A stretch of 12,202 bases of DNA from the IMG/VR virus record IMGVR_UViG_2703718823_000004; one strand, 5' to 3'. Made by a program: the position numbers and the translations under genes. Source of the stretch: a virus (lineage: Duplodnaviria; Heunggongvirae; Uroviricota; Caudoviricetes). Each line of letters begins with the position of its first letter. Positions within the stretch are counted from its first letter, which is position 1. Positions 1 through 11,383 of this stretch are shown here, one piece after another. Under the pieces are notes generated by a model. That model had not been told where the DNA came from, did not search any database, and worked only from the letters and a program-made list of their open reading frames with translations.

Positions 1-720
1 CTTCCCGAAGGCTTCAGCGACTTTATCTACCTCCACACCGGATGCAGACGCAAAACGCGCGACACTCTGGTTAATGGCATCAAACTGTTCACCACCACGC
101 ACACCGGCATTCACCAGGGCTGCCAGTGACTCTCTCGCCTGGTTAAACGTCAGCCCTGCTGCCTGCCCGGCTCTTGAGAGCGTCAGCATACGATCGGCAG
201 TCAGTCCGGCCTGATTGCCGGAAAGGACCAGCGTTTTATTAAATTCTGAAAGCGTGGCGTCGCCCTGGTACCAGGCGTACGCCAGCACACCTGTCGCCAC
301 CGCCAGCGAGGTGACCCCGACCATCGGCAGGGTGATCGCACCGGCAAGCCCCCTGAACATGGGGATCATCCCGCCGAAGGAGTCCTTCACCTGACCACCC
401 TGTTGCAGCAGGATCAGCCAGGGATTCTGACCACCGGCAAGCTGCGTGGCGATATCCGTAAACTGTGCGGGCAGGGTTCGCATGGCCGCTTTATACTGTC
501 CGACGGAAATCCCGGCTTTTTGTGCAGCCAGCGCCTGACGGCTCAGCCCCTGCTCAACAGCAGCGGCCTGTTTCTTAAAAGACTGGCTGACACGCCCGGC
601 CATCAAATCCGCAAGGTCACTGGTTTCACCCAGTTCTTTCTTTACCCGTGCAGCCTCTTCAGAAAAACGGGTTGAATCCAGTGTAAGAACAGCTGTCAGA
701 TCGGCAAAATTACCCGCCAT
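1..720 (-). CDS. H: Tail tape measure protein, gpH-like; N-terminal 240 codons only, 3' end beyond window start
   Basis: ATG at 720-718 preceded by a GGGGG Shine-Dalgarno; frame stays open to position 1. Translation MAGNFADLTAVLTLDSTRFSEEAARVKKELG...AAVEQGLSRQALAAQKAGISVGQYKAAMRTLPAQFTDIATQLAGGQNPWLILLQQGGQVKDSFGGMIPMFRGLAGAITLP matches my memory of the lambda gpH N-terminus. Not in the ORF track because no stop lies inside the window. Confidence 0.9.
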   Translation of the reverse strand, partial: MAGNFADLTAVLTLDSTRFSEEAARVKKELGETSDLADLMAGRVSQSFKKQAAAVEQGLSRQALAAQKAGISVGQYKAAMRTLPAQFTDIATQLAGGQNPWLILLQQGGQVKDSFGGMIPMFRGLAGAITLPMVGVTSLAVATGVLAYAWYQGDATLSEFNKTLVLSGNQAGLTADRMLTLSRAGQAAGLTFNQARESLAALVNAGVRGGEQFDAINQSVARFASASGVEVDKVAEAFGK

Positions 721-811
721 AGCGTACACCCCCTGGAATTCCCTCAGACACCATCATCAGCATGGCTTCATCCTCTGTACTGCTCCGCATGTCATCACTG
801 ACCATAACGAT

Positions 812-1572
812 TTACTTCCCGTCAGCCCCAAAGCGGACACCACCAGAAAGACCTGCCGCTTTCCGCATCAGCATATCGTCCTCATCCGGCATCTCCGTCT
901 GCTCATCATCACGTCGGGATGCCAGCAGACTGAAATCAGAGGGATGCATATCCGGATCGCAAAAAAACAGGCTGAGTACAGCGTACGTCAGCCCGGAAAA
1001 ATGCATATCCAGCTGGGTATCCTGAAAATAATGCGTGCGGTAAAAACGGTGCCAGTCGGCATATTCGGTGGATGTCATCCCGGCAAGCATGGCGCGCCAG
1101 TCGGGTCTCCCCATCTCACGCGCCAGTCTGAGGGCAAAATTCAGCTCGCCGTCGAAGGCTTTCCCGCAGAAAAATCATCATCAGTAAGCGCGTTATTTTT
1201 CGCCACTTCAGTAATATCAGTATCCGGACGAACAGCTTCGATCATCCCGGACAGGCACAACACCACGTCTTCCGCCCGGGCAATGGCATCGGCAGGCCAG
1301 GTGGTGAGCACTTCCTGCTCTATCTTCATCACGGCCTCATTCATTGACGGTGACTGCGTTTTCTGTGGATGGTTATGCCACAGGGACATCGCCACCAGAA
1401 ACGCGCCGGTTCTGACAAGATCTTCCACACTCACCTGCAGGTTGCCGGTGGCTTCAGCCTCTTCTGCCCGCCGTTTCAGGAGGGCAAGATGCTCAATACG
1501 CTGCAGCGCAGACAGCTCCGAAAGCGTGACAGACACACCGTTATATTCAAATTGTTCTGTTTTAAGAAACAT
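812..1572 (-). CDS. T: Tail assembly chaperone G-T fusion made by -1 programmed ribosomal frameshift; the T segment has no start of its own
   Basis: Minus strand reads GCG GGA AAG CCT near the end of G, containing the lambda slippery heptamer G GGA AAG (plus 1159..1165). The -1 frame from there is open to the stop at 812-814 and reads GKAFDGELNFALRLAREMGRPDWRAMLAGMTSTEYADWHRFYRTHYFQDTQLDMHFSGL..., which contains track ORF 812..1114. Confidence 0.8.
1141..1572 (-). CDS. G: Tail assembly chaperone gpG
   Basis: Track ORF 1141..1590 begins at a GTG. The likely start is the ATG at 1572 (MFLKTEQFEYNGVSVTLSELSALQRIEHLAL...), 6 nt after an AGGAGA Shine-Dalgarno, and matches the lambda gpG N-terminus MFLKTE. 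C-terminus ...SAGKPSTAS. Confidence 0.9.
   Translation of the reverse strand: MFLKTEQFEYNGVSVTLSELSALQRIEHLALLKRRAEEAEATGNLQVSVEDLVRTGAFLVAMSLWHNHPQKTQSPSMNEAVMKIEQEVLTTWPADAIARAEDVVLCLSGMIEAVRPDTDITEVAKNNALTDDDFSAGKPSTAS
1159..1165 (-). other. Slippery heptamer G GGA AAG (-1 frameshift site for G-T)
   Basis: Exact heptamer seen 6 codons before the G stop; same position and sequence as the lambda G/T recoding site as I recall it. Confidence 0.8.
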
Positions 1573-7544: not shown

Positions 7545-7780
7545 TAAAACCTCGCCAGTTTAAATCCTGGTTTTCCCCGCCTGCGGCTCACCATCGCGGC
7601 AAGCCTGCGTTCCCACTCCTGACGTCCGGCGCGGATCTGAGAAAGGCTTTCCAGCGTCAGTTGCTGTCCGTTGAAGGTGACAGACTTCCCCTCAAGTACG
7701 GCCATTTCCGCTTCACGGTACCGCTGTATCATTTCTCTGGCTTCTTCTGTGCTCACAACCAGCCTCCTGATGTTATCCAT
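7544..7780 (-). CDS. W: Head-tail joining protein gpW
   Basis: 78 aa, MDNIRRLVVSTEEAREMIQRYREAEMAVLEGKSVTFNGQQLTLESLSQIRAGRQEWERRLAAMVSRRRGKPGFKLARF; the C-terminal RRRGKPGF resembles the lambda gpW C-terminus RRRGPAGF, and it lies between terminase and portal as in lambda. Confidence 0.85.
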   Translation of the reverse strand: MDNIRRLVVSTEEAREMIQRYREAEMAVLEGKSVTFNGQQLTLESLSQIRAGRQEWERRLAAMVSRRRGKPGFKLARF

Positions 7781-9876
7781 GGATTATCTTCCGCACGCTC
7801 CGTCCGCAGTTTTTTCTTCCGGCGACGGCGTTTTTCTGCCCCGGCCGTCAGTTCCGGGGATACCGTTTCACCAGAACACTCCTGCGGGAAGACGAGCCAC
7901 GTTTCCCGCTGTGCCCAGTCCGGTGCGGAGGGCCAGCGGATCTTTTCGTAACCATGCAGAACGGCAAGCGCATCCGCATAAACCAGCAGGTCAAACGCCT
8001 CGTTAGCTCCCCTGCCCGGTTTTCGCCATTTTCCGTCACTGCCGCGCTCTTCATAGGTCAGCTCATCGTAAAACCATCGCCCCAGCCAGTCGGGAAAGTG
8101 GATATAGTTCGGCCCTGGTGTGTCACGCCACAGGGCATTATTTACACGGTCCTTAAACGCATCCGTCTGAACCAGCCACAGCGCGACATCGCCACTGGCT
8201 CTGGCACGGCGGGCACTTCTGCCGGTATTATCCGGGAAGGTACGGTTAATCAGCCTGTCACGGCGAAGTCCATCCCCCTTGAACAGAAACACCCTGTTGC
8301 CCAGTCCGTCACTCCGGCAACGACGCCAGAAACGATAGGCGTTATCTGTCACCCCGGCTTCCCCTCCCGTATCCACCGCCATGGCCATCAGACGCATGCG
8401 CACATCCGGATCAGAAGCCAGCGGCCATGTTTTATGGAACACATCCGTCAGCAACAAATCCCAGTCCTCCGGATATGCCGCCGGATCAACCGGCAGACTT
8501 TCACCGTTGGGACTGCAGCGCAGTGAATGCCGGATGTTATAGCGATCAACAATCCAGCGTTCCCCCTGCTCTCCGTATCCGGTGATCTGCACAACAAAAC
8601 GGCGATTTTTACCGCCCTGTACGTCAACCGTTGCCTCAATAAAACGCACACCATCCGGCACAGATCGCCGGGGAAACGGCTCGGCACGCTGTTCAAGCAG
8701 TTCACTTTTACGCTGTTCCGTGGCTGAACGGGGCAGATAGGGTCGTCCGATATCGGTGTTCACCACCGCTTTCAGGGTCTCTTCACTGCCGGTTCGCTCA
8801 TACTCTTCTTCTGCCGCCAGCAGTTTAAAAATCAGTTGTTCCCAGGTCTGAAACGCCGCGGCCGGCCCCTCCATCCAGAATGACGCAATCCGGGAATTTC
8901 GTGGCGTTCCGGTGATACTGCCGTCCGCCACCGCCCGTTCACCTTCACGAAGCCAGATCCCTTTGTTATTCAGTTCGCGTTTCTGCTCAGGGGCAATCAG
9001 CCCGCGACAATGCGGACACATCAGACGGGCAGCCTGACCGGCAGCCACAAAATCCGGGTTATTCCGGTATCCGGTCATGTTATCCATCACCGGCTGAAAA
9101 TATTCCCCGCAGTGCGGACACGGCCAGTACCACCGGCGGCGGTCTCCCCGGTTATACAGTGACAGGATCCCCGTTGTTGGCGGTGCCTCATGTGCGCCGC
9201 CACAGCGCCATTTGGTGTCAGTGATATCCCGCCCCGGCGAACTCTCGACCAGGGTCATCCCCGAGGACATAAAGGTGGTGGTACGCTTTGATGCCAGGGT
9301 GAAGGCATCCCCTTCCCCGTCCACGTTTTCAGGGAAACGGTCATAATCCGTCAGCGCCACACGACGGTAATCCGAAGAAGAAAATACAGTGATCGACGGC
9401 CAGCCAATCTTCAGGAAGGAGCCGTCAAGAAACATTTTATCGTGGACGTTGTTGTCATTACGGGAAGGACTGAGACGCTTACTGACCTCCGGGCTGTGAC
9501 GAAACGTTCTGGAAAGACGCGTTCTGGAGTGTTCCCGCGCCTTCGTCTCGGTCATTTGCACCACCAGCATATCCGCCGGATCACAGATGATGCCGTACAC
9601 AATCCAGCCGTCAATCAGCCCTTCGGTTTTCCCGGTTCGCGCAGGTCCCACAAACACCACCGCGTCATATTCACGGGCTGATAATGTATTAATGGGGTCA
9701 ATCATATAGGGCGTCAGCGATGACTCCCACGGACCGGAAGTATTGGCTCCCCGTGGTACCCGCATATAACGCCTGATGGCTTCCGCTACTGGTAACCGGC
9801 TGGGCGGGCGAAACAGCGAGGCCACTTCGCGCCAGATATCGGATGCGCGGCTATGGCTCTCGTTCACCTGATTCAC
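7753..9876 (-). CDS. A: Terminase large subunit, gpA-like
   Basis: 707 aa. GTG start at 9876 overlaps the Nu1 stop (minus ATGTGA); lambda A also starts with GTG as I recall. N-terminus MNQVNESHSRASDIWREVASLFRPP parallels lambda MNISNSQVNRLRHFVRAGLRSLFRPEP. Walker A VFVGPARTGKTE; Cys pairs CPHCGEYF...CPHCRG as in the gpA zinc-finger region. Confidence 0.95.
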   Translation of the reverse strand: MNQVNESHSRASDIWREVASLFRPPSRLPVAEAIRRYMRVPRGANTSGPWESSLTPYMIDPINTLSAREYDAVVFVGPARTGKTEGLIDGWIVYGIICDPADMLVVQMTETKAREHSRTRLSRTFRHSPEVSKRLSPSRNDNNVHDKMFLDGSFLKIGWPSITVFSSSDYRRVALTDYDRFPENVDGEGDAFTLASKRTTTFMSSGMTLVESSPGRDITDTKWRCGGAHEAPPTTGILSLYNRGDRRRWYWPCPHCGEYFQPVMDNMTGYRNNPDFVAAGQAARLMCPHCRGLIAPEQKRELNNKGIWLREGERAVADGSITGTPRNSRIASFWMEGPAAAFQTWEQLIFKLLAAEEEYERTGSEETLKAVVNTDIGRPYLPRSATEQRKSELLEQRAEPFPRRSVPDGVRFIEATVDVQGGKNRRFVVQITGYGEQGERWIVDRYNIRHSLRCSPNGESLPVDPAAYPEDWDLLLTDVFHKTWPLASDPDVRMRLMAMAVDTGGEAGVTDNAYRFWRRCRSDGLGNRVFLFKGDGLRRDRLINRTFPDNTGRSARRARASGDVALWLVQTDAFKDRVNNALWRDTPGPNYIHFPDWLGRWFYDELTYEERGSDGKWRKPGRGANEAFDLLVYADALAVLHGYEKIRWPSAPDWAQRETWLVFPQECSGETVSPELTAGAEKRRRRKKKLRTERAEDNPWITSGGWL

Positions 9877-10349
9877 ATATCGGCCTCATCACAACAGTCA
9901 ATGACTGCCTTTTCCAGTGTGTCGCGGATCTCATCAACCACAATCTGTACTTCATTCAGTTGTGATGCGGTCCACCCTCTGTCCCTTTCCAGCCGGTCAG
10001 GCCAGGTTTCCAGTACCTGAACTATCGCTTTCACCACGACAGAAAAGGACCGCCTGACATCACTGACAGGCACAAGCTGAACAGTTTCATGCTGAAATTT
10101 AAGACGCTCGCGCTCGGACTGATACCATGCCTTCCGATCATGTGGGTTCATCTCTTCATCTTCGGAAGTCGGTGGTTTTTCCAGCAACGAAATAATCAAA
10201 TCCGTCAGGAGATACAGTTTTTTCTTTTCATTACTGCCTGGTGCAAGAGGAACATCCGCCATTCTGGCGGCAACAGTCTGCCGGTGCAGACCTGAAAGGG
10301 CTGCCAGTTGATTAATATTTAACTTCATATTTTTCAGCTCGCCGTCCAT
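9873..10349 (-). CDS. nu1: Terminase small subunit, Nu1-like, with N-terminal winged-helix DNA-binding domain
   Basis: 158 aa. ATG at 10349 with a GGAGGG Shine-Dalgarno 5-6 nt upstream. MKLNINQLAALSGLHRQTVAARMADVP resembles lambda Nu1 MEVNKKQLADIFGASIRTIQNWQEQGMPV; acidic C-terminus; directly upstream of and overlapping the large subunit. Confidence 0.88.
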   Translation of the reverse strand: MDGELKNMKLNINQLAALSGLHRQTVAARMADVPLAPGSNEKKKLYLLTDLIISLLEKPPTSEDEEMNPHDRKAWYQSERERLKFQHETVQLVPVSDVRRSFSVVVKAIVQVLETWPDRLERDRGWTASQLNEVQIVVDEIRDTLEKAVIDCCDEADM

Positions 10350-10532
10350 TTACATCCCTCCACATAAACCGCTGAACAAAAGTGGCTCTTTTTTTGTAAA
10401 GAAATGCCGCCATATAAAGATGTCGAACAAAAATCAACCATAATCATCATCTTTTTAATGCTAAACACATTAAAAACAATAAGTTACCATTATGATGATG
10501 ATGACGATAAAATCACAAAAATGCGCCTTTTT

Positions 10533-10549
10533 CCGCGCCGCCCGCCCCG
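10533..10549 (-). other. Candidate cosN (cohesive-end site)
   Basis: Minus strand reads ACACGGGGCGGGCGGCGCGGAAAAAGG, sharing ACGGGGCGG with the lambda cos junction (TTACGGGGCGGCGACCTCGCGGG). It lies about 185 bp upstream of the Nu1 start (lambda: about 190 bp), followed toward Nu1 by AT-rich DNA with repeated GGCG(G)CATTT and ATTTTTGT motifs. Confidence 0.4.
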
Positions 10550-10586
10550 TGTTCAGGCCCACCCCACCAGGAGGACCCGCAAAAAT

Positions 10587-10605
10587 GATAATGATTATCA
10601 TTTTC
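10587..10605. promoter_or_regulatory. Fur-box-like palindrome (18/19 match to GATAATGATAATCATTATC on the minus strand)
   Basis: Plus GATAATGATTATCATTTTC; minus GAAAATGATAATCATTATC. Embedded in a perfect palindrome AAAATGATAAT-G-ATTATCATTTT (10582..10604). Function unproven; could instead be a terminase or other dimer-binding site. Confidence 0.35.
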
Positions 10606-10915
10606 AATGTAGTCCAGTTTCTTCCACCATCGCACCGGACAGGCGACTATGAGGGGACAACGCCGCGCTCCGTTAACGCGGTAAACCCCGGTGTGTATCG
10701 TTTTTGATTATCCCCGCACACTCGCGCAGAGGAGTCTCCCGGTAGGGCTGCGGTCTCTGTTCATGTGGGAATACGGCGACGATACTGCGCAAAGACATGC
10801 TTCAGAAATACATAAGTAAACTAAAATATTGTATCTCTGTGGCTAATTACGTAAATTGGTGGCTTGGCCCCTTTAGCCACCGGCAAATCTTCAGCGGATT
10901 ATCCTTGGCCGGTTT

Positions 10916-11383
10916 TTATCTGAGGCATTGCTCACGAATGTATAGCTGTGCCCCTTCCAGCTGCTTCTGCATTGTCATCAACCGTTCTCTGAGGATGAAA
11001 TAATCCCGTTCAGCGGTGTCTGCCAGTCGGGGGCCGGTTGCATTATCCACGCCGGAGGTGCCGGTGGCTTCACGCACGGTACCGTGGCAGGTGGCGTTGA
11101 TCCGCAGGCGCTTACGACCAGCGGCAACATCAGCACGCAGAGTTTCATTTTCAGCTCTCGCATCAGCTAATTCCCTCGAGTATTTTGCATCGAGCGCAGC
11201 AACATCGCGCTGGCGCACCTGCATATCAGTAATGGTTGCGTTTGCCAGCTCCAGCTCTCTGGCTTTTTTATCTCGCTGCGCTTTGTAGGTGATGGCGTTA
11301 TCGCGGTAATGATTCAGCCCCAGACTAAGCGCACCACAGGCCACCAGCAGGACAATAATCACCACACACAGAACACGGTTCAT
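10916..11383 (-). CDS. Rz: Rz i-spanin (inner-membrane spanin subunit)
   Basis: 155 aa with N-terminal transmembrane segment [21 protein letters not shown] followed by a charged helical region ([55 protein letters not shown]); ATG at 11383 with a GAGGGGGA Shine-Dalgarno. Confidence 0.9.
10978..11163 (-). CDS. Rz1: Rz1 o-spanin lipoprotein, embedded in the +1 frame of Rz
   Basis: [61 protein letters not shown]: lipobox LVVSAC, proline-rich mature part, and the conserved [25 protein letters not shown] signature of lambda Rz1. Confidence 0.88.

Follow-up and report, generated by a model that had tools for sequence, protein, structure and literature searches.

This locus raises the question of why a binding site for Fur, the iron-dependent regulator of the host, should stand next to the cohesive-end site (cos) of a lambdoid prophage, and whether it acts on transcription, on DNA packaging or not at all. 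The stretch analysed here, called the window throughout, comprises 12,202 nucleotides (IMG/VR record IMGVR_UViG_2703718823_000004). It is the late region of a lambdoid Escherichia coli prophage, reading on the minus strand. In the phage-forward (minus) direction, Rz is followed by the Fur box, then by 7 nt, cosQ, cosN, cosB, terS (DUF1441) and terL; a portal gene and an endolysin gene that is open to the window end are also present (Table 1). A search with the 451 bp around the site matched 138 phage records, Stx-converting phages for the most part (identity to VT1-Sakai is 93%). Among 5426 complete E. coli genomes, 1978 matched, with a best identity of 99.6%.

The initial annotation described a near-consensus Fur box inside a perfect palindrome, and both parts of that description are borne out. 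The arms AAAATGATAAT (10582-10592) and ATTATCATTTT (10594-10604) are 100% complementary around G10593, and the resulting 11-1-11 palindrome is the longest perfect one within the 12.2-kb window. The 19-bp consensus GATAATGATAATCATTATC was said to agree with the minus strand at 18 and with the plus strand at 17 of 19 positions; we count 1 mismatch for minus-strand positions 10587-10605 and 2 for the plus strand. The end coordinate given earlier, 10605, is the last base of this 19-mer, the palindrome itself ending at 10604. The Fur 7-1-7 core TGATAAT-N-ATTATCA (TGATAATnATTATCA) is matched at 15 of 15 positions. No second match to GATAATGATAATCATTATC with up to 3 mismatches was found elsewhere in the window, nor any match in 200 shuffles, and a match by chance to either the 19-mer or the 7-1-7 form is not expected. 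Most of the window's closest relatives read ...ATGATAATGGTTATCA..., with one mismatch between the arms, and the perfect symmetry is private to this window. Throughout, site strength is judged by the number of consensus mismatches and by the published bit scores of homologues.

Table 1. Features of the window around the Fur box and cos (window coordinates).
Feature	Position	Strand	Basis or remark
Perfect 11-1-11 palindrome, extended Fur box	10582..10604	.	AAAATGATAAT-G-ATTATCATTTT
Fur 7-1-7 core	10586..10600	.	0 mismatches
19-bp Fur-box match GAAAATGATAATCATTATC	10587..10605	-	18/19
cosQ GGGTCCT	10572..10578	-	identical to lambda cosQ (L005 2474-2480 = lambda 48473-48479)
Predicted 12-nt cosN cohesive end GGGCGGGCGGCG	about 10536..10547	-	inferred from alignment with lambda GGGCGGCGACCT
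cosB-like A+T-rich leader (inferred)	10350..10535	-	between cosN and terS; composition
Inverted motifs CATAATCATCAT / ATGATGATGATG in the cosB-like leader	10439-10450, 10492-10503		inverted-repeat search
Small terminase subunit candidate, DUF1441	9873..10349	-	Pfam PF07278, E = 6.5e-49
Large terminase, lambda gpA type	7753..9876	-	Pfam GpA_ATPase + GpA_nuclease, E about 1e-81 to 1e-84
Rz spanin gene	10916..11383	-	Pfam Phage_lysis, E = 2.9e-49
Rz1 candidate, embedded in Rz	10978-11163		ORF list
Highly conserved non-coding block of ~180 bp, 3' flank of Rz	10611..10790	.	alignment

The minus strand reads GAAAATGATAATCATTATCATTTTTGC-GGGTCCT-(22 nt)-CG/GGGCGGGCGGCG, in which the G-rich run GGGCGGGCGGCG aligns with the lambda cohesive end GGGCGGCGACCT. 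The candidate cosN proposed earlier for this neighbourhood is thus supported by homology to lambda, with cosQ, 22 nt and then the cohesive end; the predicted nick lies 45 bp from the palindrome centre. The reading frame just downstream of cos is called terS because it lies just upstream of terL. The cosQ element has been described as a highly conserved 7-bp site, and a further subsite, I2, lies between cosN and cosB (PMC4669245). The 7-1-7 core is separated from GGGTCCT by 7 nt, so that the Fur box stands outside the defined subsites cosQ, cosN, I2 and cosB and is not part of cosQ as defined.

The same layout is seen in well-studied phages. The lambda right end reads ...GTAGATGATAATCATTATCACTTTAC-GGGTCCT-...ACG, which means that lambda carries the same box at 48452-48466, 6 nt from its cosQ. 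By our own count the window box is nearer to the consensus, at 18 of 19 positions versus 16 of 19 for lambda. The cryptic K-12 prophages Qin and DLP12 show the Fur box-cosQ-cosN layout of the window, with the same 7-1-7 core 6 nt from GGGTCCT, and their sites are homologous to that of the window; cosN and then the small-terminase gene follow, the latter about 230-245 bp downstream of the box. They differ from the window in their cosQ-cosN spacer, in a lambda-type cosB, in a terS of the Nu1 rather than the DUF1441 type, and in carrying a divergent DUF3950 gene, the window having no divergent gene. Phage phi80 has a perfect 7-1-7 site beside cosQ, and N15 has one with 3 mismatches, inside which the gp59 stop codon falls; in both of these phages a rightward gene ends at, inside or just before the box. 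In the GenBank record of phi80, the annotation 'cosQ; aka R4 region' covers the 55 bp left of cosN and with them the box. Lambda cosQ, with the old R4 region left of cosN, is the immediate neighbour of the box and is conserved together with it. The box, however, lies outside the 7-bp cosQ proper, has the sequence specificity of a host regulator, and is found neither in satellites nor in 27 of the 62 cos clusters.

These frequencies come from a scan of IMG/VR with the pattern GGGTCCT, 18-26 nt, CGGGGCGG, which describes cosQ and cosN only and does not require a box. The scan yielded 113 lambda-like cos sites in 62 clusters. A 7-1-7 site with no more than 3 mismatches, 3-8 nt before cosQ, is present in 35 of the clusters and absent from the other 27; in all fetched DNA, such matches occur at a background rate of 2.4e-4 per position. 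The distribution of mismatches is bimodal: 35 clusters have 0-3, 25 have at least 6, and 2 fall in between, with 4-5. As to whether the palindrome is kept in related prophages, then, the Fur box is retained in these 35 clusters and the perfect symmetry is confined to the window. Nu1-type terS genes accompany 41 box-positive and 13 box-negative sites, and DUF1441-type genes 17 positive and 15 negative ones. A separate scan of genome contigs, whose pattern required the box and which therefore informs on taxonomic range only and not on frequency, found the box beside cosQ in Kluyvera, Superficieibacter, Serratia, Buttiauxella, Symbiopectobacterium, Kosakonia, Escherichia and Shigella, each of these lineages having its own flank and spacer. 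Many of the matches in that scan are lambda or phi80 DNA contaminating unrelated assemblies. We had been warned that conservation within cos in phages of hosts with another Fur specificity would speak against a Fur site; this is borne out only by half, for the box is indeed conserved beside cos, but the hosts in which it was found all belong to the Enterobacterales. As far as is known, these hosts share the E. coli type of Fur box.

Among the 35 positive clusters, identity is 81% in the box, 50% in the cosQ-cosN spacer and 29%, the random level, in the outer 28 nt, and the outer flanks fall into 28 unrelated groups. The AA upstream and the TTT downstream of the box, outside the 15-mer used for selection, are conserved as well (AAnTGATAATcATTATCATTT). 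The comparison strongly supports selection on the box in its place beside cosQ, whereas the DNA on the far side of the box shows no relationship from one lineage to the next. This bears on a reading in which the box has no function of its own and is an old Fur site that persists by linkage to the essential cosQ and cosN. Such hitch-hiking would be in keeping with a position within about 50 bp of essential cis sites and with the dispensability of the box in 27 of 62 clusters, but a box at 81% identity beside a nearer cosQ-cosN spacer at 50%, an outer flank at random level, and the conservation of the flanking AA and TTT make it improbable.

The initial annotation also considered that a binding site for a phage protein might resemble a Fur box by chance, and more broadly the element could be a hairpin, a weak terminator or a terminase site. 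On the forward strand a T-run comes after the perfect palindrome, the corresponding RNA hairpin is predicted at -7.2 kcal/mol, and the region labelled cosQ in the phi80 record includes the box. Against this, 10 of 11 pairs in the stem are A-U, where an intrinsic terminator would have a G+C-rich stem, and the terminator scan reported nothing at the box. Among the variants, 37 departures from the consensus are one-sided and 1 is compensatory, which indicates that two protein half-sites are kept rather than a hairpin. Two unrelated terS families carry the box, cosQ itself is 7 bp, and homologous sites bind Fur (see below). We therefore regard a site other than one for Fur as very improbable indeed. 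Of the suggestion that the box belongs to cos, what stands is that it is a conserved accessory neighbour of cosQ; a specificity for something other than Fur does not.

Its constant place beside cosQ nevertheless makes a role in packaging or at the DNA end worth weighing, in which Fur bound 3-8 nt before cosQ would be a speed bump or an architectural factor, either helping the translocating terminase to recognize cosQ and cosN at termination or acting on the right DNA end once it has been cleaved or injected. Across at least 28 unrelated outer flanks, cosQ is the only invariant neighbour of the box. The spacing is short and unphased (3-8 nt), a pattern more in keeping with a steric obstacle than with a phased protein-protein contact, and there is an orientation bias, with C as the central base on the forward strand in 31 of 43 sites. 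Defects in cosQ are suppressed by slow-packaging mutations, which makes a slower motor at cosQ a plausible benefit. Of all the explanations, this one best accounts for an unvarying place beside cosQ, a spacing without phase and a biased orientation. On the other hand, cosQ is described as 7 bp, the extent to which saturation mutagenesis is reported to confine it, and some of the 27 clusters that lack a box, L086 among them, have the same cosQ-cosN sequence as the window. The box is also absent from all satellite-like loci, which have several cos sites but lack a phage-type terS; in 7 of their clusters an intrinsic-terminator-like hairpin with a T-run lies just left of cosQ instead. Since these satellites use the same cosQ and cosN, and the same terminase type, without a box, it is unlikely that the box is required for packaging. 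No literature linking Fur to lambda packaging was found. Overall, we consider a packaging role unlikely, although it is the main rival to the reading favoured below.

Binding of Fur to homologous sites has been reported. Chen et al. (2007, PMC2189734) list 'nohB' at 25.3 bits (coordinate 579824) and 'nohA' at 22.3 bits (1634624), both ranking among the top 10 Fur site clusters of K-12. Allowing for offsets between genome versions, these coordinates are the palindrome centres of DLP12 (L004 2102) and Qin (L003 1601), respectively. The DLP12 nohB site is a prediction, whereas an oligonucleotide of the Qin nohA site was gel-shifted by 150 nM Fur (PMC2189734); according to the same paper, Vassinova and Kozyrev (2000) had picked out a Qin nohA fragment by in vivo selection for binding of Fur. 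In CFT073, Fur ChIP-exo under iron-replete conditions gave peak P53 at 1424699-1424711 (Gao et al. 2023, PMC10164565, Dataset 2). This peak falls exactly on GTGATAATTATTCTCG, 5 nt from GGGTCCT and followed by cosN, and a small terminase gene of the Nu1 type lies 233 bp downstream of the box. The CFT073 site has the position of the window site with respect to cosQ, cosN and terS, is occupied in vivo, and has neighbours that are derepressed in delta-fur; it differs in being a weaker box, in its Nu1-type terS and in a leftward secreted-protein ORF. With the gel shift of the Qin homologue and the peak of the CFT073 homologue, Fur binding at this kind of site is already published, and by likeness to them the window site is very probably bound by Fe2+-Fur. 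The earlier proposal of a real Fur operator is supported as far as binding is concerned, while the part that had it serve a small RNA or peptide is not (see below).

Binding is not seen in every dataset. Neither the Qin nor the DLP12 site has a peak in the ChIP-exo list for K-12 MG1655, and the genes flanking them are not named in that for W3110. The Qin and DLP12 loci are near-identical, so the missing MG1655 peaks may be a multi-mapping problem, or they may reflect real non-occupancy. In the Sakai strain, ChIP-exo peak P51 was considered as a further cos site and rejected, as it falls in the Q gene of prophage Sp8. Sakai P51 lies ~900 bp upstream of the holin gene to which it was assigned.

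A strong Fur site on a replicating genome could also be a decoy, in which at least 100 phage copies during lytic replication would titrate Fur and derepress host iron uptake, which would favour phage DNA synthesis. In K-12 the box ranks with the strongest that are predicted, and the Qin copy, as that selection is cited, came to light through a cloned fragment to which Fur bound in vivo. But one site per genome is a weak sink, and titration leaves both the constant adjacency to cosQ and the orientation bias unexplained. A cell contains thousands of Fur molecules. We consider titration very doubtful.

In CFT073 delta-fur (positive log2 values meaning up in the mutant), C_RS26755 changes by +2.95, C_RS07340 by +2.33, C_RS07370 by +2.13 and terL (C_RS07355) by +1.34, and genes of both flanking units are placed in the Fur regulon (PMC10164565, Dataset 4). 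K-12 behaves differently: nohD, nohQ and ydfO are unchanged in MG1655 delta-fur, and ynfO, ydfO, ybcV and ybcW are down in W3110 delta-fur, at very low read counts. The CFT073 derepression could also be indirect, for example through prophage induction by way of SOS in delta-fur; recN is up in delta-fur of several strains, and its value in CFT073 is 0.

One way to read these changes is that the box is the operator of a leftward (window plus-strand) promoter for cargo carried between the lysis genes and cos, such as the DUF3950/DUF1398 genes of lambda, Qin and DLP12 or the small secreted protein of CFT073. The DUF3950 genes diverge from a point ~150 bp from the box and, in our sample, 32 ORFs of this family occur at box-positive sites and none at box-negative ones; in CFT073, a leftward ORF with a signal peptide starts ~100 bp from the box, and the TU53 genes are up 2.3-2.9 log2 in delta-fur. 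However, DUF3950 (ynfO/ylcI) fails as the regulated gene, being confined to a few closely related lambda-type lineages and absent from the window by tblastn; most positive lineages are flanked otherwise. A rightward gene ends at or inside the box in N15 and phi80, the K-12 expression changes are inconsistent in direction, and in the window the conserved DNA left of the box, in the phage-forward direction, belongs to Rz as its 3' flank, where neither a promoter nor an ORF nor an Rfam match was seen. The last point follows from the ~180-bp block at 10611-10790. In L006 this block comes directly after Rz, about 830-1000 bp from cosQ, which identifies it as the 3' flank of Rz rather than cargo; in the window it abuts the Fur box, leaving no cargo gene between Rz and the box. 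A leftward operator is quite unlikely for this window.

Smaller products at the site itself fare no better. The initial annotation had called the 40-codon plus-strand frame from the ATG at 10585 dubious, and we agree. Its ATG and 'MIMIII' codons come from the palindrome and Fur box, its 'AGGAGG' shares bases with the complement of cosQ and is AAAGGA in lambda-type relatives, the frame is broken by a 1-nt indel in the relative L058, and it has no Pfam match. A Fur-regulated sRNA in 10605-10800 was likewise rejected: the interval has no promoter, terminator or unusual folding (the z-scores of the block next to the box are 0.38 and -0.17), and no Rfam family matched at E <= 1, including the sRNA families known from prophages, Esr41, AgvB, AsxR and STnc100. 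A small RNA or peptide under Fur control at this site is accordingly not supported by a promoter, an Rfam match, a conserved ORF or RNA stability. The remark that no convincing promoter overlaps the box also stands, since a simple scan gave no sigma-70-like promoter at or beside it and no conserved -35/-10 elements were apparent by eye.

We therefore favour, tentatively and as a possibility somewhat short of even, that the box is a genuine high-affinity Fur operator at a conserved cos end, where it acts as an iron-dependent transcriptional gate. Fe2+-Fur dimers would occupy the box in iron-replete cells and serve as a repressor or roadblock at the last position before cos, so that transcription arriving from the variable right arm would not run on into cos and the terminase operon. 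In genomes with a leftward cargo gene, the promoter of that gene would be damped too, and iron limitation or loss of Fur would open the gate. As the window has no leftward cargo, only the rightward role (cos, terS, terL) would apply there. The gate mechanism itself is held with much lower confidence than Fur binding. The CFT073 derepression on both sides of the box supports it, as does the fact that Fur is a transcription factor; the hairpin and T-run of the satellites would be another device that stops RNA polymerase at the same spot, and may be counted in its favour. Its weaknesses are real, namely the lack of a promoter and of K-12 peaks, the unchanged expression in MG1655 and the opposite direction in W3110. 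In addition, an ordinary terminator could be used by a phage for the same purpose, and a strong roadblock would be costly because late Q-modified transcription must cross this point.

A Fur site away from a core promoter has a precedent. The Fur sites upstream of ftnA act away from the core promoter and counteract H-NS. Like them, the window box is a Fur site without overlapping -35/-10 elements in A+T-rich, horizontally acquired DNA. As regards H-NS or activation of the ftnA type, only the W3110 data, in which neighbouring genes are down in delta-fur, point that way.

Taken alone, the window gives an ordinary result. Its site is one more Fur site of the nohA/nohB type, known from work on E. 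coli since 2000. More noteworthy is the wider pattern, in which one of the strongest Fur boxes on record stands, at a distance of 3-8 nt, beside the signal for packaging termination in lambda, phi80, N15 and most lambda-like phages of the sample, and across at least 8 enterobacterial genera. A conserved pairing of Fur box and cosQ, lambda included, appears not to have been pointed out before. We found no literature linking Fur with cosQ or with lambda packaging, or a Fur box with terminase and prophage. As far as we found, the Fur-site papers place nohA and nohB 'upstream of noh', apparently without mention of cos. For annotation, this means that Fur-regulon studies assign such sites to 'noh' genes while their position in cos goes unremarked.

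A bolder proposal is that Fur is an unrecognised host factor of lambda-like phages, with the Fur box and cosQ forming a single functional module through which host iron status would act on events at cos. We think this unlikely. If it were true, Fur occupancy near cosQ would modulate the termination of packaging, the fate of the right end or the entry of late transcription into the terminase and head genes, and this would apply to lambda itself, through its box at 48452-48466. Should the box have a role, host iron status would be linked to late gene expression or packaging in the most thoroughly studied of phage families, the Shiga-toxin phages included.

Although the 7-1-7 site at cos is nominally palindromic, it exhibits a strong orientation bias. 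Among Fur-positive cos sites read on the phage-forward strand, 31 of 43 lineages have C as the central base and only one has G, while the preferred base five positions upstream is G. Together, the central C bias and this upstream preference indicate that the 19-bp Fur box is directed towards cosQ.

The spot beside cosQ is occupied by a Fur box in phages, whereas in ten satellite-like loci from IMG/VR (L007, L022, L027, L035, L067, L077, L086, L098, L100 and L104) a G+C-rich hairpin followed by a T-run, e.g. gccggagaaatccggcttttttGC, directly adjoins cosQ. Each of these loci carries 1–3 lambda-type cosQ-cosN sites, in some cases in opposite orientations, and the cosQ-cosN of L086 is exactly identical to that of the window. 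These ten loci are possibly PICIs or capsid-forming PICIs.

The lambda right end was recovered at 100% identity in nine loci (L128, L130, L132, L136, L137, L140, L143, L146 and L148), frequently with the match at a contig end, and one such contig is 48,542 bp long. Assemblies with lambda-identical contigs include those of Oceanobacillus, Neobacillus, Shewanella, Leeuwenhoekiella, Raphidiopsis, Aeromicrobium, an Alicyclobacillus 'plasmid' and several MAGs, and an Archangium contig (L147) is identical to phi80. The presence of these lambda and phi80 sequences in assemblies of unrelated organisms almost certainly reflects contamination from a spike-in or vector.

In the window, an A+T-rich segment between cosN and terS is bracketed by inverted motifs. 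As candidate cosB R-like elements, these motifs may be bound by the DUF1441-type small terminase, and an IHF-type bend may separate them. A terminator-like hairpin lies immediately upstream of the terS start codon, antisense to terS. On the other side of cos, a conserved non-coding block comes after Rz in phages that differ in cos type and neighbours. Within it, an inverted segment pair (CCGCG...CGCGG inside GGGG...CCCC) retains its stem in L024, the most divergent copy. The block has no match in Rfam, and its folding energy is not unusual.

Features of the window and of the CFT073 locus (L127)
Feature	Locus	Coordinates	Strand	Description
Terminator-like hairpin and T-run	window	10369-10385	+	CCGCTGAACAAAAGTGG CTCTTTTTTT
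Inverted motifs	window	10439-10450 / 10492-10503 and 10444-10464 / 10484-10504		CATAATCATCAT / ATGATGATGATG
Non-coding block	window	10611-10790		~180 bp, ~95% conserved
Leftward ORF	L127 (CFT073)	645-965	-	small protein with signal peptide (MKIRNILAISLATSSFSCLA...)

In CFT073, a leftward ORF that is absent from the current RefSeq annotation starts ~100 bp from the Fur box and may correspond to C_RS07340, a gene induced in delta-fur. A TonB-family gene is found further upstream in the same prophage.

A Fur ChIP-exo peak at 1625832-1625844 in E. coli O157:H7 Sakai under iron starvation has been assigned to the holin-lysis operon (Gao et al. 2023, PMC10164565). By the listed coordinates, which may vary by genome version, this peak falls inside the antiterminator Q gene of prophage Sp8 (L126), with the holin gene ~900 bp further downstream. 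The Sp8 Fur-associated site is phage-borne, located away from cos and distinct from the cos-side site.
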